Assembly: GCA_963663035.1 (NCBI GenBank)
Contig: OY760074.1
Location: forward strand, 1,248,001-1,312,000
Origin: Acidobacteriota bacterium
GTDB lineage: Bacteria; Acidobacteriota; UBA6911; RPQK01; JADFOI01
DNA length: 64,000 bases
Reading direction: 5' to 3'
Position numbers and translations under genes: made by a program. Of the stretch, positions 1-16,322 are shown one piece after another. The notes below the pieces were generated by a model, which was given only the letters and a program-made list of their open reading frames with translations, did not search any database and had not been told where the DNA came from. Each line of letters starts with the position of its first letter. The first letter of the stretch is position 1.

Positions 1-1
1 C

Positions 2-511: not shown

Positions 512-701
512 TAGGAGAAAAACTCCTGAGGAATCCCACCCTGGGGGTCATTCATGCACTGGCCAAGGTGTTGAGGGTCACGGCTTCTGATCTGCTGAAG
601 AAGGGCGATTTGTGAACGATTCCCGGCTTTGACCCACCCAAAATGCTCCCTTTTGTGAGATGTAGATAGCCCCCAATGCCAAATCTTGAGGTGTCCTGAA
701 A

Positions 702-907: not shown

Positions 908-913
908 TCTGCC
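846..913 (-). pseudogene. tRNA-Leu(TAA) 3' fragment (att-core-like)
   Basis: Minus strand GGCAGACGCACAGGA-CTTAAAA-TCCTG-TGAGGGTTTCCCTC-GT-GAGGG-TTCGAGT-CCCTC-CCCGGGCA has anticodon arm, long variable arm and T arm; the 5' acceptor strand is missing. Confidence 0.9.
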
Positions 914-929
914 TCGAACCCCAAAGCTC

Positions 930-961
930 ACCTGGCCGTAAAACGCCCAACCCACCCTCTG
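930..961. other. Putative tyrosine-recombinase site S1 (degenerate right arm)
   Basis: ACCTGGCCGTAAA-ACGCCC-AACCCACCCTCTG matches left arm and spacer of sites at 4788, 7126, 13921. Confidence 0.55.
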
Positions 962-1039
962 ACCACCGCAAGGTAAGTCGGCTTAGATTTCCTCAGGCGT
1001 TTCGGGCGTTCGCAGGCCCATGGGCCACATTGTGAACCG

Positions 1040-1194
1040 GTATTATGCGGCTCAGCATAAGCGTTCCGCTTCACGCGGCATGTTCAGCGGAAGTCCTTGC
1101 CTATGAGGTAATTACGGAGGACCTTTCGCCGATTTCTGCTTGCCTCTTATTGGAGCAACTAGGATACTACTGATCAGTATACTCATCGCTACAC
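1040..1194 (+). other. Degenerate attI-platform copy 1
   Basis: Aligns with 3868-4023 and 13260-13416; crossover GTT appears mutated to GCT at 1188. Confidence 0.6.
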
Positions 1195-1221
1195 TGACGG
1201 ACAGGAAGGTGGACAGGCGTC

Positions 1222-1926
1222 TTGGTCATGAATAGTAGTAGTTATAAGTTTGGCGCCGTGAGCGGCGTGCTTGGTGCTGTACTTCTTTTTGCGGGAACCT
1301 CGCTACACCCAATGCAGGCAGATCCGAACGACCCTGTTGCTGCTTTCTCGGAGTACGCGGCCGATCGACATTGGGTTGCCAGTCATCTAACACAGCTCGC
1401 TGGAGTTACTCTCATTGTTGGCGCGCTCTTAGTGCTCGCCCGCGAGTTGGAGTCCGGTGGCCGAGCGGTTCTTCCCCGCATCGCCTCTGGGGGAGCGATC
1501 ACTAGCTTGGCGTTGACAGCTGTTCTTCAGGCAGTGGATGGCATCGCGCTTAAAGTGATAGTTGACGCATGGGCTGGGGTGGAGTCCCCCGAAAAGGCCG
1601 GTTTGTTCCATGCAGCATTCGGAGTCCGTCAGGTCGAAGTCGGGCTCGCCAGTGTCACGAGTATGTTCTTCGGCCTCACAGTTACGGTGTACGGAATTGC
1701 GTTATGGAACAGCAGGCACTATCCCCGATGGGTCGCAGTACTTGCCCTGCTGGGAGGTATCCCCACTTTGGTTGGGGGAGTTCTAATTGCGTACACTGGT
1801 TTTTCAAACTTAGCCATGACGGTCTATATGCCCGCCAGTTTACTTATCCTCGTTTGGGTTATTTTAGTGGGTGCTCTTATGTGGCGCCATGGCACAGCTG
1901 TCGGAGGTGGCCCAGAAACCTCTTGA
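1222..1926 (+). CDS. Multi-pass membrane protein (DUF4386-like), probable former cassette
   Basis: 234-aa ORF with about 6 hydrophobic segments; follows the attI-like platform; GTTAGGC 5 nt after the stop. Confidence 0.7.
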   Translation: MVMNSSSYKFGAVSGVLGAVLLFAGTSLHPMQADPNDPVAAFSEYAADRHWVASHLTQLAGVTLIVGALLVLARELESGGRAVLPRIASGGAITSLALTAVLQAVDGIALKVIVDAWAGVESPEKAGLFHAAFGVRQVEVGLASVTSMFFGLTVTVYGIALWNSRHYPRWVAVLALLGGIPTLVGGVLIAYTGFSNLAMTVYMPASLLILVWVILVGALMWRHGTAVGGGPETS

Positions 1927-2001
1927 GCCAAGTTAGGCGCACAAGACGCAAGGTGGGGTGACAAGATGCCGAGATCCGTAGATACCATCCGCATATATCC
2001 C

Positions 2002-2033
2002 ACTTGGCCGATAAGCCGACTATACGTTCACTG
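2002..2033. other. Putative tyrosine-recombinase site S2
   Basis: ACTTGGCCGATAA-GCCGAC-TATACGTTCACTG, 13-6-13 imperfect inverted repeat. Confidence 0.7.
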
Positions 2034-2127
2034 AAGCGGAAACTTAAGCACTCCGGTGTCTTTGGCGACTGGATTGCTAAGGATCTTTTGGAGGACGGCT
2101 ACAACATTCGCCCAGTGCGGAAGCTAG

Positions 2128-3766
2128 CCGCAATTATTCATAAGTTTGGGGTGAGTGTCGATTTTCTGCGGAAGTTCAGGGCTGAGAGTGTGTTCAGGTG
2201 CGATTACAAGGCGTCCAAGCTTGTTGAGCCGAATAGAGATGAAGCGAGAGCCCCTTCCGGAAACAGCTCGGCCCGCAGGGGGCTGTATATCTGTGTTGGC
2301 GCAGGGAGTCAGGGGACCGTCAGGTGGGACACAGACGGTGCATCAGTAATGCGAAGAGCTTTTGTTCGGGATAAGACGATGCCAGGTGCACCCAGATGCG
2401 ACGAGAAGTTTCCCGAACCCGGGCACCGATTTTGAACAGGCGGCGGCGGAGCGTCTCAATCTCCAGGTTGTGCCAGGGAGTCCCGCACAGGTAATCCCGC
2501 AGGCGCAGGATTAAGACATAGGCCAGGGCGTGGATGAAGAGTCGGAACTGGTTGGCCAGGAAACGGTGGCAGCTCAAGCGATCCATGGCCAGATCTTTTT
2601 TGAAAGCTTTCACGAAGTTCTCGCACTGGCCCCGTCCGATGTAGTGGTCATACAGCTGCCCGGCCGTGAGATCCTGGCGGTTGGTGACCACAAAGCGACG
2701 GTTGAACCCGCGCTCGCTCACTTCCACCTTGGCCACCATGCGCCGCTCCCGGTCCCAACTGTCGGCCTGATAGACGAGCTCGGTGAACTGGCGTTGCTTT
2801 TCTCCTGAGTCGTCATAGTCTGCTTGCACCTGCTCAACCAAGGGCTCGACGGTGGCCGCCAGCCGGGAGTTGCGGGCAAAGCCCACCACATACTGCAGTT
2901 TTTCCTCCTCACAGAACTCGTACAGTGCCGGCGTCGCAAAGCCACTGTCGGCTCGCACTTCGATCGGAACATCGGATCCCAGAACCTGGCGCATCCGGGC
3001 CACCACCCGTTTGAGAACCGCCACCGCGTGGGCGGCCGCCCCCTGGTTGCCGGGCCGCAGTAGCGCACATACCAGATCGCCCGTCTCGCCATCGAATAGC
3101 AGCAGCGGATGATACATGTGCTCGCGATAATAGCCGTGGTAAAAGCTGAACTCCTGCTGCCCATGCGTGACGTCATCCGTGCTGTCGATGTCCAGGATGA
3201 TCTTCTCGGGCCGGCTCTTCTTGCGGTGCTTCAAGTAGGTCTCCAGCAGCCACTGTCCCAGGCGAGTGAGATCCTTCGAGTCCACCGAGTTCTCCAGTCG
3301 CGACAGCGTGGGTTGAGAAGCCAGATCCGGATCGCTTTCCGGCAGCCGATCACACACGGTCTTGAAGATGGGATCCGAGCGCAAGCTGTCGGCATCGTTG
3401 CAGTCCTCATAGCCGGCCACGATCTGAAAGCTGCGCTGGGTGAGCAGTTCGCGAATCTGGTGGCGGACGTAGCGGCTATCTCGAGCGTCCTTCAGGCAGG
3501 AGGCAAAGCCAGCCGTCAGTCCGTGCTGTTGATCCAGGGCGTACAGACACAGCAGCCCGGCATCGGAGGAGAGCCGGCCTCCATCGAATCGAGCCACCAC
3601 TTTTCTGTCAGGGTGAGATGGCAAGTTGATCTGGCAGACTGATGCATCGCTGGGCCGTACCTTTTTGGTTTGGAGTTGTTTCATAACCCCTTTTATATCA
3701 AAGAGGTACGGCATCTTTTTGTGCCCTCGATCAGACCCCTTCTTCAGAATTTATGAATAATCCGGG
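2128..3766 (-). mobile_element. IS1380-family insertion sequence
   Basis: TIRs CCGCAATTATTCATAAGTT / CCCGGATTATTCATAAATT; CTAG on both flanks (2124-2127, 3767-3770). Confidence 0.92.
2320..3684 (-). CDS. IS1380-family DDE transposase
   Basis: FDGGRLSSDAG, LDIDST..HGQQE, RADSGF, RGQCEN..K motifs. Confidence 0.93.
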   Translation of the reverse strand: MKQLQTKKVRPSDASVCQINLPSHPDRKVVARFDGGRLSSDAGLLCLYALDQQHGLTAGFASCLKDARDSRYVRHQIRELLTQRSFQIVAGYEDCNDADSLRSDPIFKTVCDRLPESDPDLASQPTLSRLENSVDSKDLTRLGQWLLETYLKHRKKSRPEKIILDIDSTDDVTHGQQEFSFYHGYYREHMYHPLLLFDGETGDLVCALLRPGNQGAAAHAVAVLKRVVARMRQVLGSDVPIEVRADSGFATPALYEFCEEEKLQYVVGFARNSRLAATVEPLVEQVQADYDDSGEKQRQFTELVYQADSWDRERRMVAKVEVSERGFNRRFVVTNRQDLTAGQLYDHYIGRGQCENFVKAFKKDLAMDRLSCHRFLANQFRLFIHALAYVLILRLRDYLCGTPWHNLEIETLRRRLFKIGARVRETSRRIWVHLASSYPEQKLFALLMHRLCPT

Positions 3767-3867
3767 CTAGTGTTGACGGGGACGTGAAAACAATAATGGT
3801 CTACACCCGCGTCTTGAACCAGGGGCCGAGGGGTGTGCTGAGCCCCATAGACAAAATGCCGGACGGT

Positions 3868-4023
3868 GATATGCGGATCAGTATAAGCCTCTTGCTTCGA
3901 GCGGGATGTTCAGCGGAACTCGTTGCCAGTAAAGCTAATTACGTAGCGTCTTCAACCGACTTCTTTTTGCATCTTATACAGACAACTGGATTAGTATACT
4001 GACCAGCATATTCACTGTTATCC
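3868..4023 (+). other. attI platform copy 2; crossover G^TTATCC at 4017
   Basis: Homology with 13260-13416 holds up to GTTA and then breaks; GTTATCC is the exact reverse complement of the downstream attC R'' GGATAAC. Confidence 0.8.
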
Positions 4024-4039
4024 GCCAAGGATGGTTTAG

Positions 4040-4740
4040 ATGAAGTACTTCACTAAATCAGAATGGATGATTTTAGTCGGGTTGTTTGTGCTCAGTGTTA
4101 TTCCCGTCTCCGCAGGTATATTTCGTCTTGTAGAGCTCGGAGGCGGCGCAGCGATGTTACCTGAAAATCCACGTGTGACCGCGGCACCCATGCCGGTTGT
4201 GTTGCACATTATCAGCGTTGGTCTTTACTGCTACCTCGGGGCCTTTCAATTTCTCCCGAGCATCCGCCGTCACAGCCCCAAGTGATGGCTCATGATTCGG
4301 CGCCTGTGGCATGCAACGGCCGGCTCATGGTTGTTTCAGGCATTTCGGCTCTTTCAGGCCTGTGGATGACGCACTTTTATTCCTTCCCTTATGAGCTTCA
4401 AGGCGATCTTCTTTACTGCGTTCGCATTCTGCTTGGTTCCGCCATGGTCGTATTCATAGTTCTGGGTTTGGCTGCCATTTTAAGACGTGACATTGTTCGG
4501 CATAGTTCATGGATGATTCGCGCCTATGCCATCGGCCAAGGGGCGTCCACCCAGGCGCTATTGCTCATGCCTGGGTCTATGATTGGCGAAGAACCGAGTG
4601 GCCTCGCCAGAGACGTATTGATGACATTCGCCTGGATAATAAATATTGCCGTCGCTGAATGGATCATCCGAAAAGTGTTCAACAAAACGGATAACAAGTC
4701 GCTCAACACGGACGTGGCTACGCCACGCCGGTTAGCTTAG
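4040..4740 (+). pseudogene. DUF2306-like membrane protein cassette gene, interrupted near 4283
   Basis: ORFs 4040-4285 and 4282-4740 together give LHI..GAFQF...GRL...GLWMT...H..WMIRAYAIG.GA.TQ. Confidence 0.75.
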
Positions 4741-4748
4741 CGTTAGCT
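4689..4748 (+). other. Integron attC site
   Basis: GGATAAC-AAGTCGCTCAAC...GTTAGCTTAGC-GTTAGCT, 60 bp, central hairpin CGTGGC-TAC-GCCACG. Confidence 0.88.
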
Positions 4749-4787
4749 CAGCCATGGAGAAGACAATCTTGTCAGCCGCTATCGCCC

Positions 4788-4819
4788 ACTTGGCCGTAAA
4801 ACGCCCTATTCGCCCTTGA
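4788..4819. other. Putative tyrosine-recombinase site S3
   Basis: ACTTGGCCGTAAA-ACGCCC-TATTCGCCCTTGA. Confidence 0.7.
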
Positions 4820-4820
4820 A

Positions 4821-4878
4821 TGATTCCAAGAGGATCTAATCTTCAGGCCAGCCGTAAGGAGGGCGCTGACCATAAAGA
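4821..4878 (+). pseudogene. Orphan copy of the recombinase 5' leader/RBS
   Basis: CAAGAGGATCTAATCTTCAGGCCAGCCGTAAGGAGGGCGCTGACCATAAAGA is near-identical to 7804-7855; start ATG changed to ATA. Confidence 0.75.
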
Positions 4879-5162
4879 GTCCTTAAGGTTGACCAGAGTG
4901 CGGCGAACCGTGTGCTTCCCGCCTTCTATTGCAGAACGCCACCTGGTAGATGCATATCCCAGTCCGGCTTCTGTGAAGGTTGAAAACATCCCCCTCAAAA
5001 TAGATGCACCACTAGTCCGTTTGAGAGCTATTTCAGCAACCAACTCATCAGGGTCGACTAGCACCGGTCTGATTGCCCGACCCCAAACCATGGATCTCTC
5101 GTATGCTGAGATAAACCAAGAGTCCTATTGGCCTGACCTGCCCCCACGAACGAGTCCACCCT

Positions 5163-6060
5163 CTATGCTAGACCCGGGACCATTTGAAGTCCACTCCAAG
5201 GGATTGGATCCAGTGCCTGCGACCTAGGTAGTTTGGCCTCTGGCGCCGGCGGCCGATAGGCCAAGGCGCTGTGAGGCCGGATCTGATTGTAATCCCTCCG
5301 CCAGCGTTCTACCAACACCTTGGCTTCCCCCAGCGTGTCGAAGATCTCCATGTTCAGCAGCTCATCCCGTAGTTTCCCGTTGAAACTCTCAATGTACCCA
5401 TTCTCCCAGGGGCTGCCCGGCTCGATGTACAAGGTCCTTACCCCAACAGCCTGCAGCCAGTCCCGGACCGCCTGTGCCGTAAACTCCGATCCGTTATCGG
5501 ACCGGATAAACTCAGGCACTCCCCGATCAACGAATAACTCCGCCAGCCGGTCCAACACGTCTTGGTGATTCATCTGCCGTTTCACATCAATGGCGAGGCA
5601 CTCTCTGGTGTACTCATCCAGGATCGTCAATAGCCGAAAGGCTCGCCCATCATGGGTCCGTTCATGCACGAAATCATAGCTCCAGACGTGGTTCTTGCGA
5701 GCCGCTCGTAACCGAACACAGGAACCGTCATTAAGCCACAGCCTCCTTCGTTTCGGCTGTCTGGACGGGACTTTCAGCCCTTCTTGTCTCCACAGCCTCT
5801 CCACCCGCTTAGGATTCACCTTCCACCCTTCCCCATGAAGTATCGCCGTGACCCGCCGGTAGCCATAACGCCCGTATTGCTTAGCAACTCCACCATCCGG
5901 GCCACCAATCGGGCCTCATCATCGGGAATTTGCCTTTCCCTTCGCTGGGTCGATCGAACCTGTCCCAGCACTTGGCAGGCCCGACGTTCGGAGACTCGCT
6001 CTGCTCCTAATCGCTCTCGTACCCACATCACCGCTCGTCTCCTGTTCGCCGGGCCTAGAA
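5163..6060 (-). pseudogene. IS3-family transposase OrfB with an extra frameshift near 5884
   Basis: [30 protein letters not shown] core; the YGRYGYRR segment is out of frame by 1 nt. Confidence 0.8.
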
Positions 6061-6333
6061 GTTTCCCGAGGACACTTCCTTCAGGATCTGCTTGTCCAAA
6101 GACAGATCCGCCACCAGCTTCTTCAACCGGGTATTCTCCTTCTCCAACACCTTCAACCTCTTGGCCTGGTCCAACCGGAGCCCTCCGTACTCTTTGCGCC
6201 ACCGGTAGTAGGTCTGCTCGCTCACCCCCATCTGCTTCGACACCTGTCCCACCCTCTGTCCTTGGGCCAGACCCACCTCTGCCTCACGCAGCTTCATGAT
6301 GATCTGTTCTGCCCTAAACCGCTTCCCTGCCAT
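6055..6333 (-). CDS. IS3-family transposase OrfA
   Basis: HTH GVSEQTYYRWRKEYGG and leucine zipper; ends GNF at a likely -1 frameshift site. Confidence 0.9.
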   Translation of the reverse strand: MAGKRFRAEQIIMKLREAEVGLAQGQRVGQVSKQMGVSEQTYYRWRKEYGGLRLDQAKRLKVLEKENTRLKKLVADLSLDKQILKEVSSGNF

Positions 6334-6399
6334 CCTTGCCTCCTTCCTAAACCGGAAATCCTAACATTCAAACTGGACTCGTTTTAGGGGGCAAGGTCA

Positions 6400-6609
6400 A
6401 GTGGCGCATGGACTACAATCAGCAAAGACCTCATAGCTCGCTTAGGGATCAAACGCCGGAGGCTTTTGCCCTCGCTAGCGAGGGCAAAGAAAGGGGAGGC
6501 ACTCACGTGAGTAGGGTGAGTGTTCTAGAGCCCCAAGGGGTGGGTGTTTCACCCATCCCAACCTGAAAATACTAACCCTATGCTTGGTACAGTTTTCCGG
6601 GGCAGGTCA
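6400..6609 (+). mobile_element. 3' remnant of a second IS3-family element
   Basis: Encodes WRMDYNQQRPHSSLRDQTPEAFA and ends ...TTGGTACAGTTTTCCGGGGCAGGTCA. Confidence 0.8.
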
Positions 6610-6659
6610 GTGGTCCCAGGTCTAACTTAGAAGGTGGACTCGTTCGTGGGGGCAGGTCA
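6610..6659 (+). mobile_element. Solo 50-bp IS3 end, inverted copy of 5134-5183
   Basis: Reverse complement TGACCTGCCCCCACGAACGAGTCCACCTTCTAAGTTAGACCTGGGACCAC. Confidence 0.85.
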
Positions 6660-7004
6660 GACTTCGCCGCACTGAGGAATTACTGCCGTCATCTGGAGTT
6701 GAACTTTGCCTCCTTTGCCGTGCTGACTCCTCTGCCGGGGACTGACCTATATCACGAGGTGAGAGATCGGCTCATCACGCGCAACTATGATTGCTTTGAC
6801 TTCATTCACACGCTGCTCCCGACGACACTCCCTCTCAAGGATTTCTATGCGGAGTATCACGATCTTTATAAAAACGGGATCGCCCTGAGCAAGCAGCTCT
6901 CTTTGCTTAAGAAGTATCCATTACGAGAAATCCCAGGCTTACTGGCAAAGGGACGCCGATTCTACAAGAGACTCAAGACGGCCTACCTGGACTATGAGAA
7001 TTGA
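6660..7004 (+). pseudogene. C-terminal fragment of a B12-binding radical SAM-like protein (cassette gene)
   Basis: FAVLTPLPGTDLY...YDCFDFIHTLLPTTLPLKDFY; 5' part removed at the IS end. Confidence 0.65.
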
Positions 7005-7027
7005 ACGTTGTTGGCGTGTCACTAGCC

Positions 7028-7091
7028 GTCTAACCAGTCGCTCCAGCCGCCGCGGGCCCGAGGCCCGCGCGGGCTGAGCTCATCGTTAGCT
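7028..7091 (+). other. Integron attC site
   Basis: GTCTAAC-CAGTCGCTCCAGC...GCTGAGCTCATC-GTTAGCT, 64 bp, GC-rich central hairpin. Confidence 0.9.
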
Positions 7092-7125
7092 CAGCCATAG
7101 AGAAGCCAATCACCACCCTTTCGCC

Positions 7126-7157
7126 ACTTGGATGTATAACGCCCTTACCGGAAACTG
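7126..7157. other. Putative tyrosine-recombinase site S4
   Basis: ACTTGGATGTATA-ACGCCC-TTACCGGAAACTG. Confidence 0.72.
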
Positions 7158-7180
7158 ATCGACAACCGAAGGTTCAGGTT

Positions 7181-7211
7181 TGGTGCAAAGTGGTGCATAT
7201 TGATGTATAAT
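7181..7211 (+). promoter_or_regulatory. Putative sigma70 promoter with TGGTGCA direct-repeat operator
   Basis: GTGCAA-N17-TATAAT; TGGTGCA at 7181 and 7191, directly upstream of the RHH gene. Confidence 0.5.
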
Positions 7212-7219
7212 TGTAGTTT

Positions 7220-7477
7220 ATGGCAACCATGGAAAAACCCATTCGTCAGAGCATCTCGCTGCCCTCTCGTCTGGCCAAGCGGGTCAAGGCTTTGGCCAAG
7301 CACCAGAAGACCAGCGCGAACCGAGTTCTCGTTGAGCTCATCGAGACTGGGCTGGAGTCGAAGGAAGCTGAGAAACACCGGTTCTTTAAACTGGCAGACC
7401 GGTTGAGTACTTCGACCGATAGAGCAGAGCAGCGGCGCATCAAGGAGGAGCTGGCACGCCTGACGTTTGGGGAGTAG
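7220..7477 (+). CDS. Ribbon-helix-helix (CopG-like) protein, putative antitoxin
   Basis: RQSISLPSRLAKRVKALAK...SANRVLVELIETGL. Confidence 0.75.
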   Translation: MATMEKPIRQSISLPSRLAKRVKALAKHQKTSANRVLVELIETGLESKEAEKHRFFKLADRLSTSTDRAEQRRIKEELARLTFGE

Positions 7478-7720
7478 ATGCCGAAAATTCAATGGAAGAA
7501 TCTCCCGCCTGCCCTCCGGGATCATCTCTTCGATCGACTTCGCGAGCGAAAAGTCACAGTCGAGAACCTCTATCAGTTGAAACTTTGGCGCGAAACCGAG
7601 CCCGAGGCTCCAGAAGGACTTTGGTACAAGGACTTTGGATCGTTCAAGATCTGTGGGGAAGGGAGATATCCGAAGACCTTTCTACTGCGCGGTCAGCCCG
7701 CCAAGGGGGTGAAGCTCTGA
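7478..7720 (+). CDS. Small hypothetical protein, putative toxin
   Basis: 80 aa; start abuts the RHH stop (TAGATG); GGGGAG RBS. Confidence 0.6.
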   Translation: MPKIQWKNLPPALRDHLFDRLRERKVTVENLYQLKLWRETEPEAPEGLWYKDFGSFKICGEGRYPKTFLLRGQPAKGVKL

Positions 7721-7848
7721 AGTACTCCCATTAATGCTTGGAAGACCTCCCGCGACCTCACGGCTACCTCTCGGCCCTATGACCCTCTACTCACCTCCGG
7801 ATGCAAGAGGACCTAATCTTCAGGCCAGCGGTAAGGAGGCCGCTGACC

Positions 7849-8799
7849 ATGAAGAGAAAAAGCAAAAGGAGTTCCAAGAAGGTTTCCAAGACCAAAACCA
7901 GGCTTCAGCTTCCCGATCTCGATCAAGCCAAGGCAGCCGTGCTCAACAGTCTAGGATCACCGGAGTCGCAACGCGGGTATCACCATGCCATCGACGAGTT
8001 CATTGGTTGGTATTGCTCTGAACCGCGCCTCTCCTTCAACAAGAGCGTGGTAACCCGCTACCGAATCCACCTCGAGGCTCGCCAACTGGCACCAGGAACC
8101 ATCAACGTCAGACTCGCAGCGGTGCGCCGTCTCGCTTACGAGGCGGCCGACTTTGGGCTGTTGAGCCCGGAACTCGCAGCGGGCATACGCCGGGTCAAGG
8201 GAGCGAAAAAATTGGGCGTTCGCCTTGGCAACTGGCTGACGGCTGAAGAGGCTCGCACCCTGTGGCAACTTCCTAATACCGAGACTCTCAAAGGCAAGCG
8301 TGACCGAGCAATCCTGGCAACCCTCTTAGGTTGTGGACTTCGTCGCCGTGAGCTTGCTGAGTTGACCTTCTATCACCTCCAACGTCGTGAAGATCGCTGG
8401 GTAATCATCGACCTGGTTGGCAAAGGGGGCCATGTTCGGACAGTCCCGGTTCCAGACTGGGTCAAACGAGCCATCGACATCTGGCTCACCGCAGCCGGAA
8501 TTGCGAGCGGTCGACTCTTTCGGTGCGTTTGTAGAGCGGGAACCGCCTGGGGCAACGGCATGACGGAGAAGGTTGTCTGGCATGTCGTCAAAAACTATGC
8601 TGCCAAGCTCGGAGCTCCAAAGCTCGCTCCACATGACCTTCGTCGATCCTGTGCACGCCTCTGTCACGAAGCCGGCGGCGAGTTGGAACAGATCCAATTT
8701 CTGCTCGGCCACGTCTCAGTGCAAACGACAGAAAAGTACCTTGGGTGCAAGCAGCGCCTTCGCGGAGCCGTCAACGATCGAATTGGAATTGAGCTATGA
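7849..8799 (+). CDS. Tyrosine recombinase/integrase (Xer-like, not IntI)
   Basis: AAGGAGG RBS; catalytic set GLRRRE, GKGG, HDLRR, LGH, TTEKY; no IntI-type C-terminal tail. Confidence 0.93.
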   Translation: MKRKSKRSSKKVSKTKTRLQLPDLDQAKAAVLNSLGSPESQRGYHHAIDEFIGWYCSEPRLSFNKSVVTRYRIHLEARQLAPGTINVRLAAVRRLAYEAADFGLLSPELAAGIRRVKGAKKLGVRLGNWLTAEEARTLWQLPNTETLKGKRDRAILATLLGCGLRRRELAELTFYHLQRREDRWVIIDLVGKGGHVRTVPVPDWVKRAIDIWLTAAGIASGRLFRCVCRAGTAWGNGMTEKVVWHVVKNYAAKLGAPKLAPHDLRRSCARLCHEAGGELEQIQFLLGHVSVQTTEKYLGCKQRLRGAVNDRIGIEL

Positions 8800-8830
8800 C
8801 ATAGTCAGGTGCAAGGGTATACGACATCCC

Positions 8831-8862
8831 ACCCGGACGACTTGCCGACTATACGTCCATGT
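8831..8862. other. Putative tyrosine-recombinase site S5
   Basis: ACCCGGACGACTT-GCCGAC-TATACGTCCATGT, 31 nt after the recombinase stop. Confidence 0.65.
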
Positions 8863-8971
8863 GAACAAGTAGGCCTGCCACATCAGCAACGATCAGTCAT
8901 ACAGATTTAGACAGGCTGAGATGCATCTAACATCCTTTGCAGGACATAACCTGCGAGAGTTGCCCAGATGG

Positions 8972-9595
8972 TTAACACCTATCACCGAGGCTCATCATTA
9001 GAAAGCCACAGAATGCAGGATTGTTCGGCGCAAGATTTGCGTTTGATTTGGCTCTGATTTCCAAAAGATTCTTACGGAATTTGCGATAGAAATCCCATGT
9101 GGGGGTGGGCCTATATTCAAGATCTAGTTCAAGTTTCTCTATGATCAATTTTGCGGTCGTCGGCTTCACAAAAACCTCTTTTCGCGGACGGTAGTATGCC
9201 TGAATTACCGTAGCAAGTGACCACTTGGCTAGTTTGTTCTTCATAAGCTGATCGACAAAAAGCTCAAACCCAATCCTCTCTTTGCCGTGAAGGAGTTCGA
9301 AGAGCGCCTCCGACACGGCTTCCTTCTCCTTTGTCTTCATTGCTTTTGTATAGTCACGGAATTTCGGCTTTTCAAACATCGAAATCATCGTCGATCGACC
9401 GACGAGTTTCGCTGTTTCAGTGACCACGTAATGAGGGTCGTTGAAATTGTCTTTTGCGAAGGCTTCCTTTGCCAAAGCCTCAAATTGTTCCATCTTGTGC
9501 TTTTTCCCAAGTTCAACCAGATCAGGGTGCTTGAACCCCCCGGGGTACTGCCTAAGAAATTTCCTTTCGGCCTCTTGGAGTACCTTGGCATTCAT
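8972..9595 (-). CDS. Hypothetical protein
   Basis: 207-aa ORF with AGGAG RBS. Confidence 0.75.
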   Translation of the reverse strand: MNAKVLQEAERKFLRQYPGGFKHPDLVELGKKHKMEQFEALAKEAFAKDNFNDPHYVVTETAKLVGRSTMISMFEKPKFRDYTKAMKTKEKEAVSEALFELLHGKERIGFELFVDQLMKNKLAKWSLATVIQAYYRPRKEVFVKPTTAKLIIEKLELDLEYRPTPTWDFYRKFRKNLLEIRAKSNANLAPNNPAFCGFLMMSLGDRC

Positions 9596-9797
9596 ATTGT
9601 TTCTCCTAGTGCGATCTTATGTATGCTTTGCGTCCATCAATCATCTTCAGAACGTCCCGACTCATCATGCTCTTCATCATGAATGAGTCCATTAGGGAGA
9701 CTACCCAGTTCTTTGGCGCATAGTGGGTCTGCAACCCAACCCTCGTTGTGTTGTCGTCGAGCTCTCCGGACACCCCACAGCATCTGGCCACTGATAC

Positions 9798-10385
9798 TCA
9801 GATTGCGCTATTGGGCCTGTAGATGCTCATCATCGCGCCAGTCGAGCAAGTATCCGTTTTTATGAGCGTCAAACCTGTCGGTACGGTGCCCTGAGCGAAT
9901 AGGCGTTTCCCAGAGCCAACAAGGACGGGAAAGATCCATAGTCGGAACTCATCGATAAGCCCATGGGAAAGGAGGGTCTGGATCAGTTGCCAGCTTCCAT
10001 GAACTTGTAGCAAGGGACCGTCTTGGTCCTTGAGTCGAGAGACCTCCGCCGCAATGTCCCCTGTGATGGGCACGGAGTTTTTCCACTCGAGTTTGCTCAA
10101 GGTGGATGTCGCAACGAACTTGGTTGCGTTGTTAAGTTTGTTGGCAGGCGGGTCGTTGCCGGCGTCTGGCCAATGAGCTGCGAAGCCCTCGTAGGTCTTT
10201 CGGCCGAGTAGAAGGTCGTAGGGAGCGGCCATCGCCTCTTCCATCACCTGCTCCATCACGTCGTCCCAACAGTCGCGGGCCCAGCCGCCGTGCATAAATC
10301 CGCCCGAAGGATCTTCCTCGGGACCGCCGGGCGCCTGCATGACGCCGTCAAGAGTCAAAAATGTTAAAATCGCAAGATTCCTCAT
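9798..10385 (-). CDS. Dihydrofolate reductase-like (RibD C-terminal domain) protein
   Basis: TLDGVMQAPGGPEED, LLGRKTYE, GLIDEFRLWIFPVLVGSGKRLF. Confidence 0.88.
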   Translation of the reverse strand: MRNLAILTFLTLDGVMQAPGGPEEDPSGGFMHGGWARDCWDDVMEQVMEEAMAAPYDLLLGRKTYEGFAAHWPDAGNDPPANKLNNATKFVATSTLSKLEWKNSVPITGDIAAEVSRLKDQDGPLLQVHGSWQLIQTLLSHGLIDEFRLWIFPVLVGSGKRLFAQGTVPTGLTLIKTDTCSTGAMMSIYRPNSAI

Positions 10386-10430
10386 GACGATCTCCTTGTT
10401 CTGCTTGCCGCTAGTTCATATGTCCTAGCT

Positions 10431-10856
10431 TCAGCGTGTGGTAGTTGAGTTGAATTTCGCTCGTACGTCTGCGATGTAGCTCGACTTATCTCCTCTAAAC
10501 CGATCCAGGTGTTCCCTCGTAACAGCAGTGTATAGATCGTACTTTGACGCCCAAATAAACATCTCGATGAACATAGGAAGTAGATCGAGAGCCTTCTCAG
10601 TGGGGGAGTAAATATTCTTCCTGAGATTGTTCGGATCTCGGGTCTTTTTTAGTATCTTGAGCTTCTCTAGCTTAGCGAGTCGATCCGCGAGGATATTGGT
10701 GGAGATGCCTTCCTCGGACTCCAGGAACTCGTGATAATACTGTTTTCCCAAGATGATGACGTCTCTCAAAATGAGGAGGCTCCACTTGTCACCGAGCAGC
10801 TCAAGAAAGTATGCGCATGGGCACCCGGTTCGGGTCTTGTACTTCATATCAACCAT
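10431..10856 (-). CDS. HxlR-family winged-helix regulator
   Basis: GCP...LELLGDKWSLLILRD, EGISTNILADRL. Confidence 0.88.
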   Translation of the reverse strand: MVDMKYKTRTGCPCAYFLELLGDKWSLLILRDVIILGKQYYHEFLESEEGISTNILADRLAKLEKLKILKKTRDPNNLRKNIYSPTEKALDLLPMFIEMFIWASKYDLYTAVTREHLDRFRGDKSSYIADVRAKFNSTTTR

Positions 10857-11091
10857 AGCAAAACACCTGTTAACTTGTAAAATGATAGCATTAATAGGTA
10901 CATAAAAGCAAGCTCTATTTAAAAGGGTAAATAACATATAAACATATTATAAACAAATGGTTAATAGAAGTTCAATTGAGTAGTGTTCAGACATATAGAA
11001 AAAAATATCCATCAATAACTTGCATAATACAAGTATCATTGGTATACATAGTCTCCGACCATGAAACCTATTAACAAAGGAGGAAAAGAAA

Positions 11092-11457
11092 ATGGAAAAC
11101 ACAGTCGTATGGTTTGACATCCCGGTCACCAATATTGAGCGGGCAAAAGAATTCTATCAAGCAGTGATCGGTGCAGAACTCACAGACATGGAGAATGGGC
11201 CCGCCCGGTTTGCCATGTTCCCATTCGCGCCAGGTATCGCGTCAGGTGCACTCGTTCAGAGTCCTGACAGTAAACCAAGCGCTTCGGGCACCACGGTCTA
11301 TCTAAATGGAGGGAAAGATCTTTCAGACCCGTTATCACGCGTAGAAAGTGCTGGTGGCAAGATCGTAATGCCAAAGACCAGTATAGGAGAAAATGGGTTT
11401 ATGGCCCGTTTCCAGGACACTGAAGGCAACGTCGTAGCTCTACATAGTATGCAGTAG
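11092..11457 (+). CDS. VOC/glyoxalase family protein
   Basis: VVWFDIPV..IERAKEFY, F.DTEGNVVALH; AAGGAGG RBS. Confidence 0.9.
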   Translation: MENTVVWFDIPVTNIERAKEFYQAVIGAELTDMENGPARFAMFPFAPGIASGALVQSPDSKPSASGTTVYLNGGKDLSDPLSRVESAGGKIVMPKTSIGENGFMARFQDTEGNVVALHSMQ

Positions 11458-11592
11458 GAAGGAGAGCCTGGCTGTTTGGCTCGCGATTTTGGGATTTGAT
11501 TGAGGCCCGGCCTGCCGGTAAACTAGCCGTCGGGCCGGGCCTATCGAAACGATCCCTGAAAACAGGTAATCAACACCACGGAGACTCTAAAT

Positions 11593-12300
11593 ATGCAAAA
11601 TCATAAGATAGTATCGAAAGAAGAGTGGCTTGTTGCACGAAAAGAGCTTTTGGCTAGAGAGAAAGAATCTACCCGACTACGTGACCAATTGAGTGCTGAG
11701 CGGCGGAAACTCCCCTGGGTCAAGGTCGAGAGCGAGTATCTTTTCGACACTCCGAAGGGTCAAGAAAGCCTGTCGGATTTATTCGAGGGACGTAGCCAGT
11801 TGATTATCTATCACTTCATGTACGGGCCTGACTGGGCGGAAGGTTGTCCCAGCTGTTCCTTTTGGGCGGACAATTTCAACGGAATTAATATTCACCTCAA
11901 CCATCGAGACATCAATCTGGTTGTTGTCTCTAGGGCACGACTGGAGACGCTAGAAGCCTACAAAAGGCGCATGAATTGGAGTTTTAAGTGGGTATCATCG
12001 TTTGGAAGCGATTTCAATCGTGACTACAGCGTTTCATTCACTCCCGAGGAAGCGGAAAAAGGGGAGGTATTCTACAACTTTCGCGTCGGCAAGTTTCCCA
12101 GCGAGGAGGCAGCCGGAATCAGTGTGTTTTACAAGAACGAGCAGGGAGACGTCTTTCATACATATTCGTGTTACGCACGCGGTTTGGATATGGTAAACGG
12201 CGCATACCACTACATGGATCTCGCACCCAAAGGGCGTGATGAAGGCAGTTTACCTTACACGATGGCTTGGCTCAGTCGTCATGATCAGTACAAGGATTGA
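11593..12300 (+). CDS. DUF899 thioredoxin-like protein
   Basis: RRKLPWV, QLIIYHFM, GCPSCSF, HTYS.YARG. Confidence 0.88.
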   Translation: MQNHKIVSKEEWLVARKELLAREKESTRLRDQLSAERRKLPWVKVESEYLFDTPKGQESLSDLFEGRSQLIIYHFMYGPDWAEGCPSCSFWADNFNGINIHLNHRDINLVVVSRARLETLEAYKRRMNWSFKWVSSFGSDFNRDYSVSFTPEEAEKGEVFYNFRVGKFPSEEAAGISVFYKNEQGDVFHTYSCYARGLDMVNGAYHYMDLAPKGRDEGSLPYTMAWLSRHDQYKD

Positions 12301-12524
12301 AGTCCTGTCCCCGTATTCGTCAGTATCGCATCAACGGAGTTGCTCACCCGCTGGAGAATTGAAGCAAAAAAATGACTGCACCAACTAACACTGTTTTTCG
12401 CATACGTCATCTCCGCCAAACCTTTCGGAATTTTTGGGTTTGGTGCTCAAATGGACACGTCCTTCCAAGACTCCATCAAACGGTAAAGCGTTCAGTCCGA
12501 GGCGATATCGAAGTCGTAGATGAC

Positions 12525-12590
12525 GGTATGGATGCCACCTTGACCGATCTCCTCTAGAACTTTGTAGTGGCTGATGGTCGTGCCGACCAT
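12525..12590 (-). pseudogene. N-terminal stub of a Ser/Thr kinase gene
   Basis: Reads MVGTTISHYKVLEEIGQGG, matching kinase starts at 26091, 28808, 32605. Confidence 0.7.
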
Positions 12591-12651
12591 GACGTCTTCC
12601 TCAATGTGGGTGTGATTCTTGTTCAATCCTAAAACCATTGGGAGTGAAAAG

Positions 12652-12857
12652 GCAATCAAAATTGCCCCTTATCTTGGCTGGAGCGGGGTGGAATGGGGTG
12701 GAGTGGGTTTGGCGCGGGCACACTTCGGGCACAATTTGGGTACTTTGGGGTTGAGTCAGGGAGACTCAACTTGGCTGAAACCCGCGTCAGAAGCGTGCCC
12801 GGGGAGGGACTCGAACCCTCACGAGGGAAACCCTCACAGGATTTTAAGTCCTGTGCG
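12652..12857. repeat. ~200-bp direct repeat copy 2
   Basis: Aligns with 702-907. Confidence 0.85.
12796..12857 (-). pseudogene. tRNA-Leu(TAA) 3' fragment (att-core-like)
   Basis: Identical to 846-907 over 62 nt; 5' part absent. Confidence 0.9.
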
Positions 12858-13121
12858 CTTTTTTGACCGGGCGACTGGGCATGCAGCTGGTTCAGGCTAC
12901 CTGAGCGTCGTCATATAGGAACCTCAATAACGGATGGGTCCATTCTTCGGATAAGTATATACGGGCAGTCCCTTCAGGCTCCTTGCACCTCGTTTGGTTA
13001 GGATACCCACATGTGTTGTGTCTCTTTCGCTCTAACAACTGCACTGTTGTATGCCCTTGGGCGAAACCAGTTTCTAACCGCCTTCACGCCGACTTGAACG
13101 CACCGACCAACCAGAGCGGGC

Positions 13122-13153
13122 ACATGTACGGTAAGCGGACTATACGTCCAAGT
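13122..13153. other. Putative tyrosine-recombinase site S6
   Basis: ACATGTACGGTAA-GCGGAC-TATACGTCCAAGT; inverted relative to 13921-13952. Confidence 0.78.
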
Positions 13154-13154
13154 G

Positions 13155-13261
13155 GACTAGGAACACGAGGATGTTAAGAATAACAAATGGGGCACACCGA
13201 CATCTTGAATCGGGGACCGATGGGGAGTTCGGACCCCATGGACAAAATGCCAGACGGGTAA
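13155..13261 (+). pseudogene. intI: IntI C-terminal remnant (frameshifted)
   Basis: LG/HEDVK ... HTDILNRGPMGSSDPMDKMPDG*; DNA aligns with 3781-3869. Confidence 0.72.
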
Positions 13262-13416
13262 TATGCGGGTCAGTATAAAGACTTCTGCTTCGAGTGCCAT
13301 GTCCAGCGGAACTCGTTGCCAGTAAGATTACTTACGTAGCGTCTTCAGCCGATTTCTGCTTGCGTTTTATACGGACAATTATGAGGATATACGGATCAGC
13401 ATATTCACTGTTAGCC
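13260..13416 (+). other. attI platform copy 3; crossover G^TTAGCC at 13410
   Basis: CAGCATATTCACT-GTTAGCC; GTTAGCC is the exact reverse complement of attC R'' GGCTAAC. Confidence 0.82.
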
Positions 13417-13451
13417 ACACACCACAACCAGGAAGCGAAGGAGCGAAGAAG

Positions 13452-13814
13452 GTGATCAAGTTTGTCATGTGTTTGACACGCCACCCGCGTATGACTCGCG
13501 AAGAATTCAGGGACTACTGGAAGAACAAGCATGGTCCGTTCTTTATGAAGAATGCAGATAAGATGGGTGCCCAGAGGTACGTGCAATCTCACACCCTGAA
13601 CACGCCGCTAAATGAAGGCCTCAGGGCCTCCAGAGGGATGCTTCCTGAATATGACGGCGTTGCGGAAGTCTGGTTCGAGTCAGAAGAAGCGCTTGTTGCG
13701 GGAATGAGCTCTCCTGAGGGGCAGCAACTTGGCGCAGCCCTGCTGGAAGATGAGGGGAACTTCATCGACCATTCCAAATCATCGGCGTTTATCGTTGAGG
13801 AGCACGAATTCTAG
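13452..13814 (+). CDS. EthD-domain (dimeric alpha-beta barrel) protein, cassette gene
   Basis: MTREEFRDYW...HGP, YVQSH, YDGVAEVWFES, DE.NFID. Confidence 0.88.
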   Translation: MIKFVMCLTRHPRMTREEFRDYWKNKHGPFFMKNADKMGAQRYVQSHTLNTPLNEGLRASRGMLPEYDGVAEVWFESEEALVAGMSSPEGQQLGAALLEDEGNFIDHSKSSAFIVEEHEF

Positions 13815-13816
13815 GT

Positions 13817-13879
13817 GGCTAACAGGGCGATGCAGGCGGACCGGCCTCCGGCCGGCCGCTGATCGCCAAGGCGTTAGCT
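13817..13879 (+). other. Integron attC site
   Basis: GGCTAAC-AGGGCGATGCAG...CTGATCGCCAAGGC-GTTAGCT, 63 bp. Confidence 0.9.
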
Positions 13880-13920
13880 CAGTCATGGAGAAGACGATCT
13901 TCTCAGCCACCCTTTCGCCC

Positions 13921-13952
13921 ACTTGGACGTATAACGCCCTTACCGTGCAAGT
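13921..13952. other. Putative tyrosine-recombinase site S7 (most symmetric; island right border)
   Basis: ACTTGGACGTATA-ACGCCC-TTACCGTGCAAGT. Confidence 0.8.
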
Positions 13953-14102
13953 GAAGATTACTCAGAACCTCAGAAGTAGCTTCTGGGAAGTTGAGACCCG
14001 CACCGGACGAAGTGCCATCTCCAATTTAAACCCAGTTCTTCTCTCGAAATTGGGTCCCACAGTACCGAAGGGGAGGGAACTAAGGTTCCAGTTGATGCCA
14101 GG

Positions 14103-15725
14103 CTAGGGAATCTGGGCGCCGGCGGTCTGGGGTTCTTTGTCCGTGGTTTGGTCTTGGCGGTCTGAGGGGAACAGCAACTTGTACAGGACACTGTCGATGA
14201 TCGCTTTCCAGCTGGCTTCCATGACATTGGAGGAGACGCCAAGAGTACTCCAGGTTCGCTGACCATCGGTGGACTCGATGAGGACACGCACTTTGGCAGC
14301 AGTTCCGCTCTGAGCGTCAAGGACTCGTACTTTGTAGTCGATGAGCCGGACCTCATTAATCTCGGGAAAGAAGCGCCCCAGTGCTTTTTTGATGGCCTGG
14401 TCCTGGGCGTGAACAGGTCCATCTCCGTGGGAGACGACATGTTCCTCGACCCCGTCCACACTGATCTTGGCGGTGGCCTCACTCACAAATTGGCCGGAGG
14501 GATTCTGGTCCACCAGTATCCGGAATCCCTTAAAATCAAAGGGTTGTTCCCGGTCTTTCCCGAATCTGTGAAAAAGGAGCTTTAAGCTGCCGTCGGCCCC
14601 TTCAAACTGATATCCCTCGTATTCAAGTTGCTTGATCTCTTCCAACAGTGAGCTTAAGTCAATATCTTCCGGATCGAGATCCCCGAATTCCCGGATCTTG
14701 TAAAGCAAATTGCTCTTCCCGGACAGATCAGAGACCAGGACCCGGCGGGTGTTTCCCACCACGTCCGGGTTGGCGTGCTCGTAGGTTCGTGGATCTTTGT
14801 TGATGCCGCTCACATGGAGTCCTCCTTTGTGGGCAAAAGCACTCTGGCCCACAAAAGCGAGGTTGTTGGGTAGAACCATATTGGCCGTTTCACTGACAAA
14901 ATAGGCAAGGGAAGTCAGGCCCTTGAGTTTTTCCGGGCCGACTGTCTCTTTGTCCAGTTTCAACTCCAGGGTCGGAATCACGGAGCAGAGATTGGCATTG
15001 CCGCAGCGTTCTCCATACCCGTTAATTGTTCCCTGAACCATACGGGCGCCGGCTTGGACGGCAGCAATGGTGTTGGCAACTCCCATCTCACAATCGTTGT
15101 GGGTATGAATGCCGAGGAAGGGAAATTCGGGGCTTAACTGGTGTGCCAGGGATTGAATTGTGGAGGGGAGGTTTCCTCCATTGGTGTCACAGAGCACGAC
15201 CCAGTCGGCTCCCGCCTCGCGGGCCGTCCGAAGCACGGCCTTAGCATACCTGGGATTGGCCGCGTAGCCGTCAAAGAAGTGCTCGGCGTCAAAGATGACT
15301 TCCTTGTCCTTCTCCTTCAGGTAAGCGATGCTGTCTTGAATCATGCTGAGGTTTTCCTCCAGAGTCGTCCCCAGAGCCCGCTCTACGTGAAAATCCCAGC
15401 TTTTGCCCACCAGAGTAATCGCCGGGGTATCCGCCTCTAGCAGGGCGGCAATGTTGGGATCCCGATCCACCGAATTTTTGTAGTGGCGGGTGCTGCCGAA
15501 GGCCACAATTTTGCTCGACTCCCAGGAAAGGTCTCGGGCCCGCCGGAAAAATTCCACATCTGTCTGGTTGGAGCCTGGCCAGCCGCCTTCGATGTAATCA
15601 ACACCGAAAGCATCCAGCTTTTGGGCAATGTGGAGCTTGTCCTCGACGCTGAGTGAGATGCGTTCTCCTTGAGTCCCGTCTCGCAGGGTACAGTCATAAA
15701 TGAAAACCTTTTTGCTATCGCTCAT
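14103..15725 (-). CDS. cimA: Citramalate synthase
   Basis: DCTLRDGTQGE, IEGGWPGSN, FDAEHFFDGY, GYGERCGNANL, LeuA-type regulatory domain. Confidence 0.9.
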   Translation of the reverse strand: MSDSKKVFIYDCTLRDGTQGERISLSVEDKLHIAQKLDAFGVDYIEGGWPGSNQTDVEFFRRARDLSWESSKIVAFGSTRHYKNSVDRDPNIAALLEADTPAITLVGKSWDFHVERALGTTLEENLSMIQDSIAYLKEKDKEVIFDAEHFFDGYAANPRYAKAVLRTAREAGADWVVLCDTNGGNLPSTIQSLAHQLSPEFPFLGIHTHNDCEMGVANTIAAVQAGARMVQGTINGYGERCGNANLCSVIPTLELKLDKETVGPEKLKGLTSLAYFVSETANMVLPNNLAFVGQSAFAHKGGLHVSGINKDPRTYEHANPDVVGNTRRVLVSDLSGKSNLLYKIREFGDLDPEDIDLSSLLEEIKQLEYEGYQFEGADGSLKLLFHRFGKDREQPFDFKGFRILVDQNPSGQFVSEATAKISVDGVEEHVVSHGDGPVHAQDQAIKKALGRFFPEINEVRLIDYKVRVLDAQSGTAAKVRVLIESTDGQRTWSTLGVSSNVMEASWKAIIDSVLYKLLFPSDRQDQTTDKEPQTAGAQIP

Positions 15726-15740
15726 AAGTCACCTATTTGC

Positions 15741-16322
15741 CTATCCCTGTTTGGCCTTGACCTTCGATTTTACTGGGGTTTTCTTACCGCTGGACTTGTC
15801 CACCAGTGATGGGTCCTGCCGGGCTGAGGAGCTTCTCCGATTTTTCGTCTTTCCTCGCGCAAGCGTCAGCTCGCCCGTGCGGTGAAGGTCCCCGATTCCA
15901 TAGACCTGCATGTTTTCTAAAAAGGCGTCAATTTTTTCTGCCTGTCCAGTGATCTCAAAGATGTAACTCTTGGGTCTTACGTCGATCACGCGGGCCCGGA
16001 ACACCTCAGCGAGAGCCAGGACTTCGGTCCTGTTCTCCTCGTTGACGTGCACTCGCACCAGTGCCATCTCCCGCAACACATGCACGACCGGGTTGTAGAG
16101 AGAGACCTTGATAACATGAATCAACTTGCTCACCTGTTTCACGACCTGTTCGGTCCCGGCTTCATCGGTGTCTGTGGTCAGTGTGATCCGGGAAGTCGTG
16201 GGCTCCAGGGTTGGAGCCACGTTCAAGCTTTCAATGTTGTAACCGCGCTGGCTGAAGAGTCCCACCACACGCGACAGCACGCCAGCTTGGTTTTCAACTA
16301 ACAGTGAAATGACCTGTCGCAT
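15741..16322 (-). CDS. ilvN: Acetolactate synthase small regulatory subunit
   Basis: ISLLVENQAGVLSRVVGLFSQRGYNIESLNV ACT domain. Confidence 0.92.
   Translation of the reverse strand: MRQVISLLVENQAGVLSRVVGLFSQRGYNIESLNVAPTLEPTTSRITLTTDTDEAGTEQVVKQVSKLIHVIKVSLYNPVVHVLREMALVRVHVNEENRTEVLALAEVFRARVIDVRPKSYIFEITGQAEKIDAFLENMQVYGIGDLHRTGELTLARGKTKNRRSSSARQDPSLVDKSSGKKTPVKSKVKAKQG

Follow-up and report, generated by a model that had tools for sequence, protein, structure and literature searches.

An integron platform without its integrase, bracketed by putative core sites of a second recombination system in an Acidobacteriota genome

How does a part of an integron come to lie, stripped of its integrase, between the sites of another recombinase? 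This question is raised by an 831-bp unit at 13122-13952 of a 64-kb stretch of DNA (the window) from an Acidobacteriota bacterium (contig OY760074.1). Coordinates without prefix are positions in the window, whose position 1 corresponds to genome position 1,248,001; G numbers denote related genomes and L numbers single loci or contigs, with L125-L128 being metagenome contigs. Integrons usually possess one integrase gene (intI), one attI site and one cassette array, and are mobile only inside transposons or plasmids. The unit studied here contains the last codons of an intI gene, an attI-like platform and a single cassette, and it is bounded by inverted sites of another type. On balance, we consider it probable that it is an integrase-less integron platform travelling as cargo of a second recombination system that resembles dif modules.

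The unit ends in a 35-nt inverted repeat (13121-13155 and 13919-13953, complementarity of 83%), and the parts in between stand where the initial annotation, which covered 13122-13952, had placed them. At the left end, a B-type core site (13121-13155, reverse strand) with the spacer GTCCGC directs its weaker arm towards 13121, and its conserved arm abuts a decayed C-terminal stub of an integron integrase (about 13156-13261, forward strand). This stub, approximately the last 33 codons, is frameshifted and has its stop codon at 13259-13261. It is followed on the same strand by the non-coding attI-like platform of about 155 bp (13262-13416), which ends in GTTAGCC (13410-13416), and by a cassette open reading frame (ORF) for an EthD-domain protein (13452-13814; Pfam PF07110, E = 2.1e-24). 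The attC of this cassette (13817-13879, forward strand, 63 nt) folds into an R''-L''...L'-R' hairpin (-22.5 kcal/mol, z = -4.8); its ends read AAC...GTT, its spacer is unpaired, and three of its bases bulge out. A tail of about 40 nt (13876-13918, forward strand), presumably the original right half of attI, terminates in the 14 nt AGCCACCCTTTCGC, the conserved extension of the A-type core site (13919-13953, forward strand), in which two 14-nt inverted arms flank the spacer ACGCCC. The inverted sites, initially given as 32 bp long, are real, and prove to be 35 nt long and of two different types, A and B, with different spacers.

A blastn search of the whole 3.59-Mb genome matched the platform (13186-13416) to 3795-4023 (79.9% identity) and 1036-1185 (73.5%), the tail together with its site to 4740-4807 (87%) and 7084-7150 (82%), and the site alone to five further places. 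Between the copies in the window, homology stops at the sites and does not continue past them, in line with the bounded unit proposed at the outset. Copy 2 (1997-4816, forward strand) comprises a B site (1997-2033), a stub, the platform, a frameshifted DUF2306 gene, an attC (4689-4748), the tail and an A site (4786-4816). Its stub of about 60 codons is split by an IS1380-type insertion sequence (IS; 2124-3770, transposase at 2320-3714 on the reverse strand), and an uninterrupted stub of this type is present in L094 and L126. A second copy of the transposase gene, with identical Pfam scores, is located at genome positions 76981-78375 (L119 4981-6375); since one copy splits the stub and the other a ZnuA gene, this IS has apparently been active recently. 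Copy 1 (926-2033, forward strand) consists of an A site, a short stub, a decayed platform (approximately 1000-1194), a DUF4386 gene (1222-1926) and the B site at 1997-2033, which it has in common with copy 2; an arrangement of this type with DUF4386 also exists in G021, a member of another family (82-84% identity). A radical-SAM cassette fragment (6699-7123, forward strand) retains its attC (7028-7091) and tail, is followed by the A site at 7124 and has its 5' end cut by an IS3-type element (5133-6660). The initial annotation had thus correctly identified copy 2 (as 2002-4819, with its IS and DUF2306) and the right half with the radical-SAM cassette, and its decayed left half at 1040-1194 is indeed a decayed platform, with a short stub and DUF4386 in addition. 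The point at which the left site meets the stub is not the same in copy 2 as in copy 3, the name used here for the unit at 13121-13953.

The bracketed frame is not confined to the window. The succession of B, stub, platform, cassette or cassettes and A was observed at five loci, namely, window copies 2 and 3, L094 (G008), L125 and L128, the latter two belonging to the four metagenome contigs (L125-L128) retrieved with a platform 21-mer as the query. In L128, a B site, a stub junction of the copy 3 type (80.7% identity over 13121-13414), the platform, an SDR cassette, an attC-like hairpin and an A site follow each other. L125 begins with a mini A/B pair (such pairs have 25-45 bp between the sites and measure 70-90 bp overall), followed by a junction of the copy 2 type (stub2), the platform, a fatty-acid desaturase cassette, the tail, an A site, a SelO module, another A site, small ORFs and a recombinase gene. 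L094 contains small ORFs, B, stub2 without the IS, the platform, methyltransferase and GNAT cassettes, and a mini A/B pair. The remaining loci are less complete: L126 (A, recombinase, B, stub2, platform, DUF2306 and a further cassette) has only the B site and its array continues; L127, whose first bases lie within the platform, has a gene for an FAD oxidase; in L093 (G010), B adjoins the platform at a third position and the contig ends, leaving B only; and L096 (G006) harbors two tandem units, each with a 75-bp platform remnant, a cassette, an attC, the tail and an A site. The stub2 junction is common to window copy 2, L094 (91%), L126 (88%) and L125 (79%), and the cassettes include at least seven different genes (DUF2306, EthD, methyltransferase, GNAT, fatty-acid desaturase, SDR and FAD oxidase). 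Because an identical truncated B|stub junction occurs with different cassettes, cassettes were changed after the integrase had been cut.

The derivation of the unit from an integron without its integrase is supported by its coding remnant, its attI-like platform and its attC. The stub translations match the end of the integron-integrase model TIGR02249 (E = 9e-4 for copy 2, 1.3e-8 for L128, 4e-19 for L125 and 1e-24 for L103) and cover model positions 272-315; the stub of copy 3 aligns to them at the DNA level, and its 23 residues alone gave no TIGR02249 match. For the L125 stub, the integron model scored 69 bits versus 40 bits for XerC, and the L128 stub matched integron models only. The platform is 71-93% identical to the copies in its own genome and in six relatives (G005, G008, G010, G021, G028 and G029). 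In eight aligned platform copies from five genomes, homology ends at CACTGTTAG, after which different genes follow, with the exception of copy 1 and G021, which share DUF4386. Similarly, copy 2 and L126 share a DUF2306 cassette at 96% identity; in L126, the gene is intact (227 aa) and free of the IS, and the two loci diverge exactly after the GTT of attC, the integron crossover point. Judged by these alignments, the platform corresponds to a putative attI, that is, a site that adjoins intI and at which cassettes appear to be inserted with the crossover in GTT.

The three attCs of the window (z = -3.1 for 7028-7091 and -3.05 for 4689-4748) and one from G006 resemble an attC of G003, a genome of the same genus, in which it follows a cassette beside an IntI gene above the curated cut-off. 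R'', L'', L' and R' boxes, an unpaired spacer and extrahelical bases can be recognized, as expected for an attC, which closes the 3' end of a promoterless ORF, in these candidates, which were called by folding, rules of our own and comparison. A strict rule-based hairpin scan of the forward strand of the 64 kb passed only 13817-13879. A relaxed rule gave three hits in the window versus 0-6 in 10 random sequences, and its counts therefore do not discriminate. An Rfam search of the whole window returned no match.

The sites at the ends of the unit have, by their sequence, the layout of a tyrosine-recombinase core site. Each consists of two arms of about 14 nt (CACTTGGNCGTATAA) in inverted orientation around a spacer of 5-6 nt, which is ACGCCC in A and GTCGGC in B; in full sites, the second, weaker arm mirrors the first. 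A sites read CCACTTGGNCGTATA-ACGCCC-TTACCG... and are usually preceded by AGCCACCCTTTCGC, whereas B sites read CACATGGNCGTATA-GTCGGC-TTAYCGG... and are often preceded by CCTGAATACCGT. The integron tail always precedes an A site wherever this could be checked. Genome-wide, the 27-nt core had 10 matches, and scans with degenerate 16-nt cores, used in place of an nhmmer search with a six-sequence B model that was too weak, produced 14 B-like and 38 A-like rows. By the criterion of 0-1 mismatch plus an arm, 7 B and 10 A sites were judged real, and 7 of these 17 fall within 926-13953 of the window. The platform itself contains a motif, TTATACGGNCAAYTGG (13363-13383), that is conserved in all platform copies and resembles the conserved A/B arm in reverse; in G006, a fragment of a recombinase gene is fused to the platform directly upstream of this motif.

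The second tyrosine recombinase to which the initial annotation had ascribed these sites may also be at hand. A Xer-like gene (7846-8799, forward strand; 317 aa; PF00589, E = 3e-21) lies between an A site (7124-7160, forward strand), which is upstream of two small ORFs and the gene, and a B site (8826-8864, reverse strand) directly after its stop codon. The usual motifs, R, K, H-x-x-R, H and Y, are present in its translation. The protein scored 112.1 bits with TIGR02224 (XerC; cut-off 335), 101.6 bits with TIGR02225 (cut-off 329.6) and 38 bits with the IntI model, and is thus not an equivalog of the XerC/XerD chromosome-dimer resolvase; among the genes of this genome, two others are better candidates for Xer. 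The genome contains no other full copy of 7846-8799. A 5' fragment of a second copy (4820-5132, forward strand), cut by the IS3-type element, stands behind the A site at 4786, with 92% identity to 7804-7856 and an A-to-recombinase junction as in L009 and L126.

A protein search returned at least 8000 relatives at 75-94% identity, and members of the family abound in metagenomes of soil and sediment. Among the records examined, relatives carry generic names only, such as "site-specific recombinase XerD", and plasmid-borne homologues from cultured Acidobacteria are labeled simply as tyrosine-type recombinases. In species-representative genomes, a relative was encoded at 377 of 424 candidate loci; 80 of these, mostly from Acidobacteriota, were kept, and 73 were testable for flanking motifs. 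Of the 73 loci, 17 have an A-like motif 59-88 bp ahead of the start codon (2 of 248 background windows) and 15 have a B-like motif 9-67 bp past the stop codon (1 of 248 in the background); both were present in 9 loci, and the remaining loci have related but different flanking motifs. This comparison with background replaced an ungapped 16-nt inverted-repeat test around the gene, in which the observed values did not stand out from the shuffled ones. From this association, we infer that the product of 7846-8799 is a candidate enzyme for the A and B sites.

Two further features of this gene were noted. A hairpin, CAGCGG...CCGCTG (7822-7848), spans the Shine-Dalgarno sequence GGAGG ahead of the start codon, its 3' strand immediately following GGAGG, and occurs at the same position in 21 recombinase loci; RNAalifold predicted five pairs, with a compensatory change at one pair in 4 of 22 sequences, which hints at translational control. 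Between the A site at 7124 and the gene there are two small overlapping ORFs (7220-7477 and 7478-7720), the first being weakly RelB-antitoxin-like (E = 0.0018). The pair recurs at 94-97% identity in G008 and L125 and may represent toxin-antitoxin-like cargo.

The DNA on either side of the cores is reassorted. We tabulated the flanks of 34 sites (20 A and 14 B). At the A sites, the integron-tail flank is paired with eight different far-side flanks, and four far-side classes are paired with at least two near-side classes; at the B sites, three classes in each direction have at least two partners. The B|stub2 junction, for example, has to its left DUF4386 in the window, the recombinase in L126, small ORFs in L094 and a mini A/B pair in L125. 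The far side of the B site at 13121 recurs in G003 (L098) with another near side, and that of the L128 B site resembles the far side of the site at genome position 1690509. Other cargo between A and B includes a 6.5-kb ZnuA/ABC-3 zinc-transporter segment (genome 74232-80742), SelO (L125), the toxin-antitoxin-like pair and the recombinase itself, so that the integron platform is one passenger among several. Contigs assembled from sequencing runs contain the joints 13940-8842 (26 letters between), 13112-2001, 4020-4741 and 772-12717, which may stem from related strains or repeats and were counted neither way; stretches that no contig covered were not taken as evidence. A flank comparison with same-genus genomes was swamped by short repeats and gave no clean empty site. 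Near other A/B sites, short sequences of 50-500 bp (L119 1790-2600 and 10390-10913; L123 770-944, 2387-2558 and 6281-6804) are repeated tens of times in each of the five same-genus genomes searched, and the genus seems rich in small repeat elements.

Our favored interpretation can be put as follows. An integron whose intI reads towards attI would have been reduced to the last intI codons, the attI region of about 155 bp, the EthD cassette with its attC, and the tail. Cassettes would be gained and lost at the GTT of attI and attC, and, as intI is truncated and the genome encodes no IntI, this would require an integrase supplied in trans. The Xer-like recombinase would bind A and B, and recombination of A with A or of B with B would reassort the flanking DNA; such reassortment, rather than descent, would have put one platform frame beside different neighbors and yielded several copies. 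A bolder version, in which the units are integrase-less attI docking stations that are moved and copied as modules by the dedicated Xer-like recombinase through A x A and B x B recombination and keep receiving different cassettes from an IntI in trans, so that two layers of site-specific recombination would be nested and the platform would be a mobile non-autonomous element in Acidobacteriota, is a possibility that we advance only tentatively and tend to doubt.

A number of observations weigh against this interpretation. No recombination or movement was directly observed, and the read data are assembled contigs of related strains with ambiguous joints. An intact IntI, which the initial annotation had proposed to look for elsewhere, is not among the 12 matches to TIGR02249, of which the best reached 83.9 bits versus a cut-off of 265. 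The platform has indeed shed its integrase, as that annotation held, and with only C-terminal stubs adjoining it, the unit is not a complete integron, which is defined by an integron-specific intI. No IntI over the cut-off was detected in the platform-bearing genomes G005, G008, G021, G028 and G029 either. Such genes are present in 7 of the 76 genomes of the order (the unpublished G017 is included in the platform and IntI tallies only and supports no claim), and the 12 loci around them have no blastn similarity to window positions 1-16000, so that no intact integrase can be linked to the platform. Furthermore, seven platform copies (three in the window, one each in G005 and G021, and two in G029, one of which is further split by an IS, like copy 2) have seven different intI start points, with about 9 to about 125 codons left; these variable starts and the two B|stub junctions imply that B reached the stub repeatedly or through adjacent deletions. 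Since the A and B spacers differ, a single A x B event cannot excise the unit, which would have to move with a neighboring module or in two steps. Copy 1 lies between weak arms and thus has the opposite topology.

The distribution of the platform adds to these reservations. No A/B sites accompany the platform in G005, in G021 or at either of its two copies in G029. The 80 recombinase loci of other genomes contain no platform by blastn, which makes the link between platform and recombinase local to this family; the tail was matched there only jointly with its A site (L009, L010 and L027). An empty platform-tail junction was found in 0 of 15 family genomes. Of the further copies that had been foreseen, bracketed frames with different cassettes exist in other genomes, and no empty unit was found in the 15 family genomes. 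Similarly, of the portable module initially proposed, the recurrence of the same bracketed frame with different cassettes has held up, whereas the left end is not fixed, the spacers exclude A x B excision and movement was not observed. Homologous exchange between platform and tail repeats could also be the source of the cassette differences.

Several of these points would be accounted for if the locus were passive debris, in which decayed integrons were struck repeatedly by a small transposon-like element with A as its left end and B as its right end, and adjacent deletions reached into intI; the inserting element, with or without the recombinase gene, would often have shrunk to about 90 bp, and the unit, being no more than what remained between two insertions, would never move as such. 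Mini pairs of A followed by inverted B (70-90 bp) are common (genome 2363322/2363381 and 2884197/2884256; L094, L095, L096, L097, L100 and L125), their best-conserved arms point outwards like terminal inverted repeats, and the recombinase gene is itself located within such a pair. Variable truncation of intI beside B fits end-adjacent deletions, and platform copies without sites exist. However, there are no target-site duplications at the A/B pairs examined, and simple insertion does not predict that the DNA outside the pairs falls into recurring, freely recombining classes. Nor does it agree with a tail that is never found without an A site, or with B|stub junctions that stay the same across genomes as neighbors and cassettes change. 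We therefore regard this explanation as rather unlikely, albeit one to be taken seriously.

Two other explanations have very little in their favor. With sites in mutual inversion and a recombinase encoded nearby, the segment between B and A might be an inversion switch that turns cassette expression on and off. Yet all five fully bracketed loci have the stub beside B and the tail beside A, none of the 34 tabulated sites is a hybrid that combines an A-type extension with a B-type spacer, and the two spacers differ, which renders a switch highly improbable. We give equally little credence to the idea that nothing here derives from an integron, the platform being a conserved leader or promoter and the attC hairpins terminators. 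The empty Rfam result, the hits that the relaxed hairpin rule finds as frequently in random sequence (3 versus 0-6 in 10), and a platform kept at 71-93% identity without an integrase, which could mean a function of its own, agree with it. It conflicts with stubs that fit the extreme IntI C terminus better than Xer models, with homology between copies that reaches no further than GTT to either side of the cassette, and with hairpins that have AAC...GTT R boxes, an unpaired spacer and bulges and resemble an attC from a genuine integron of this genus.

The surroundings of the sites have peculiarities of their own. The cumulative GC skew of the genome has a flat-topped peak at about 1.236 Mb (region of approximately 1,230,000-1,290,000), which places the A/B cluster 12-26 kb from the inferred replication terminus, where dif is expected; other sites are scattered genome-wide. 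A dif-like motif had five weak matches in the genome and none in the terminus plateau, and no conclusion was drawn from it. Three tRNA-Leu(TAA)-like genes (845-927, 12795-12880 and genome 2363235-2363316, all on the reverse strand) have a common 3' part and odd 5' parts, and two of them have an A site directly at their 5' end. In every same-genus genome searched, a 62-bp piece that probably belongs to this tRNA-like repeat recurs at several places with 100% identity. A 209-nt direct repeat (699-907 and 12649-12857; 86%), located downstream of the two tRNA-like genes of the window, brackets about 12 kb in which the recombinase, two IS elements and copies 1 and 2 are found; in one contig from a sediment run, 772 is joined to 12717, as though a related strain lacked these 12 kb, a weak indication that comes from contigs only.

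How does this arrangement relate to known systems? Some integrons, in Spirochaetes, Chlorobi and others, are "inverted", with intI oriented as the cassettes. The stub of the unit likewise reads towards attI and the cassette, and this layout also occurs in G003, there with an IntI that exceeds the cut-off; unlike in inverted integrons, no intact intI is attached to the platform lineage at any locus examined. For the other systems, the comparison draws on abstracts and on parts of PMC4889954, PMC8138268 and PMC3575428. Clusters of attC sites lacking integron integrases (CALIN) are defined there as at least two attC within 4 kb without an integrase, and Cury et al. report that 15 of 279 CALIN lie near an intI pseudogene and that 38% have IS elements close by (PMC4889954). 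The unit resembles CALIN in having an attC cassette without a working integrase; with one attC, it is not itself a CALIN, and the attCs at 4689 and 7028, 2.3 kb apart, would qualify as a pair. It differs in the conserved attI platform with a stub, several per genome and across families, which the consulted parts of PMC4889954 do not describe.

In MITE-integron-MITE structures and integron mobilization units (IMU), a class 1 integron (defective in IMU) lies between two short repeats and can be moved by an enzyme in trans (PMC3575428). As far as this source was covered, the likeness is an integron bracketed by short elements, with an enzyme possibly acting in trans. The brackets there, however, are transposon-derived MITEs (miniature inverted-repeat transposable elements) used by a transposase in trans that leaves target duplications, whereas here they are core sites of about 35 nt for a presumed tyrosine recombinase, and target-site duplications were found neither at the unit ends nor at the mini A/B pairs examined.

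The closest parallel is provided by the plasmid dif (pdif) modules of Acinetobacter, in which inversely oriented two-arm tyrosine-recombinase sites bound diverse cargo (PMC6449649 and PMC13141974, at abstract level). As in these modules, cargo lies here between inverse two-arm sites, a site is common to neighboring segments, and the same module stands in several contexts with breakpoints at the sites. A and B have the inverse orientation and the two-arm architecture, and are no more than candidates for XerC/XerD binding sites; their sequence is unlike the dif consensus. They further differ from dif modules in comprising two site types with their own spacers, in a dedicated Xer-like gene that is itself a module, and in being chromosomal, in an Acidobacteriota-type genome, with an attI platform among the cargo. 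Within the literature scope given above, we encountered neither a recurring attI platform with an IntI stub nor an attI platform boxed by core sites of a dedicated Xer-like recombinase; elements of this kind, or this subgroup of recombinases, might appear in the supplementary tables of PMC4889954 and PMC8138268. The present data add a truncated platform that persists across bacterial families, several per genome and with a different gene each time, and that in one family is regularly boxed by the sites of a second recombinase. If this second layer moves the platform, capture sites for cassettes would spread without their integrase, and shuffling of the dif-module type would exist outside Acinetobacter plasmids, with an enzyme of its own. 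Two systems of DNA shuffling appear to be stacked on each other here.

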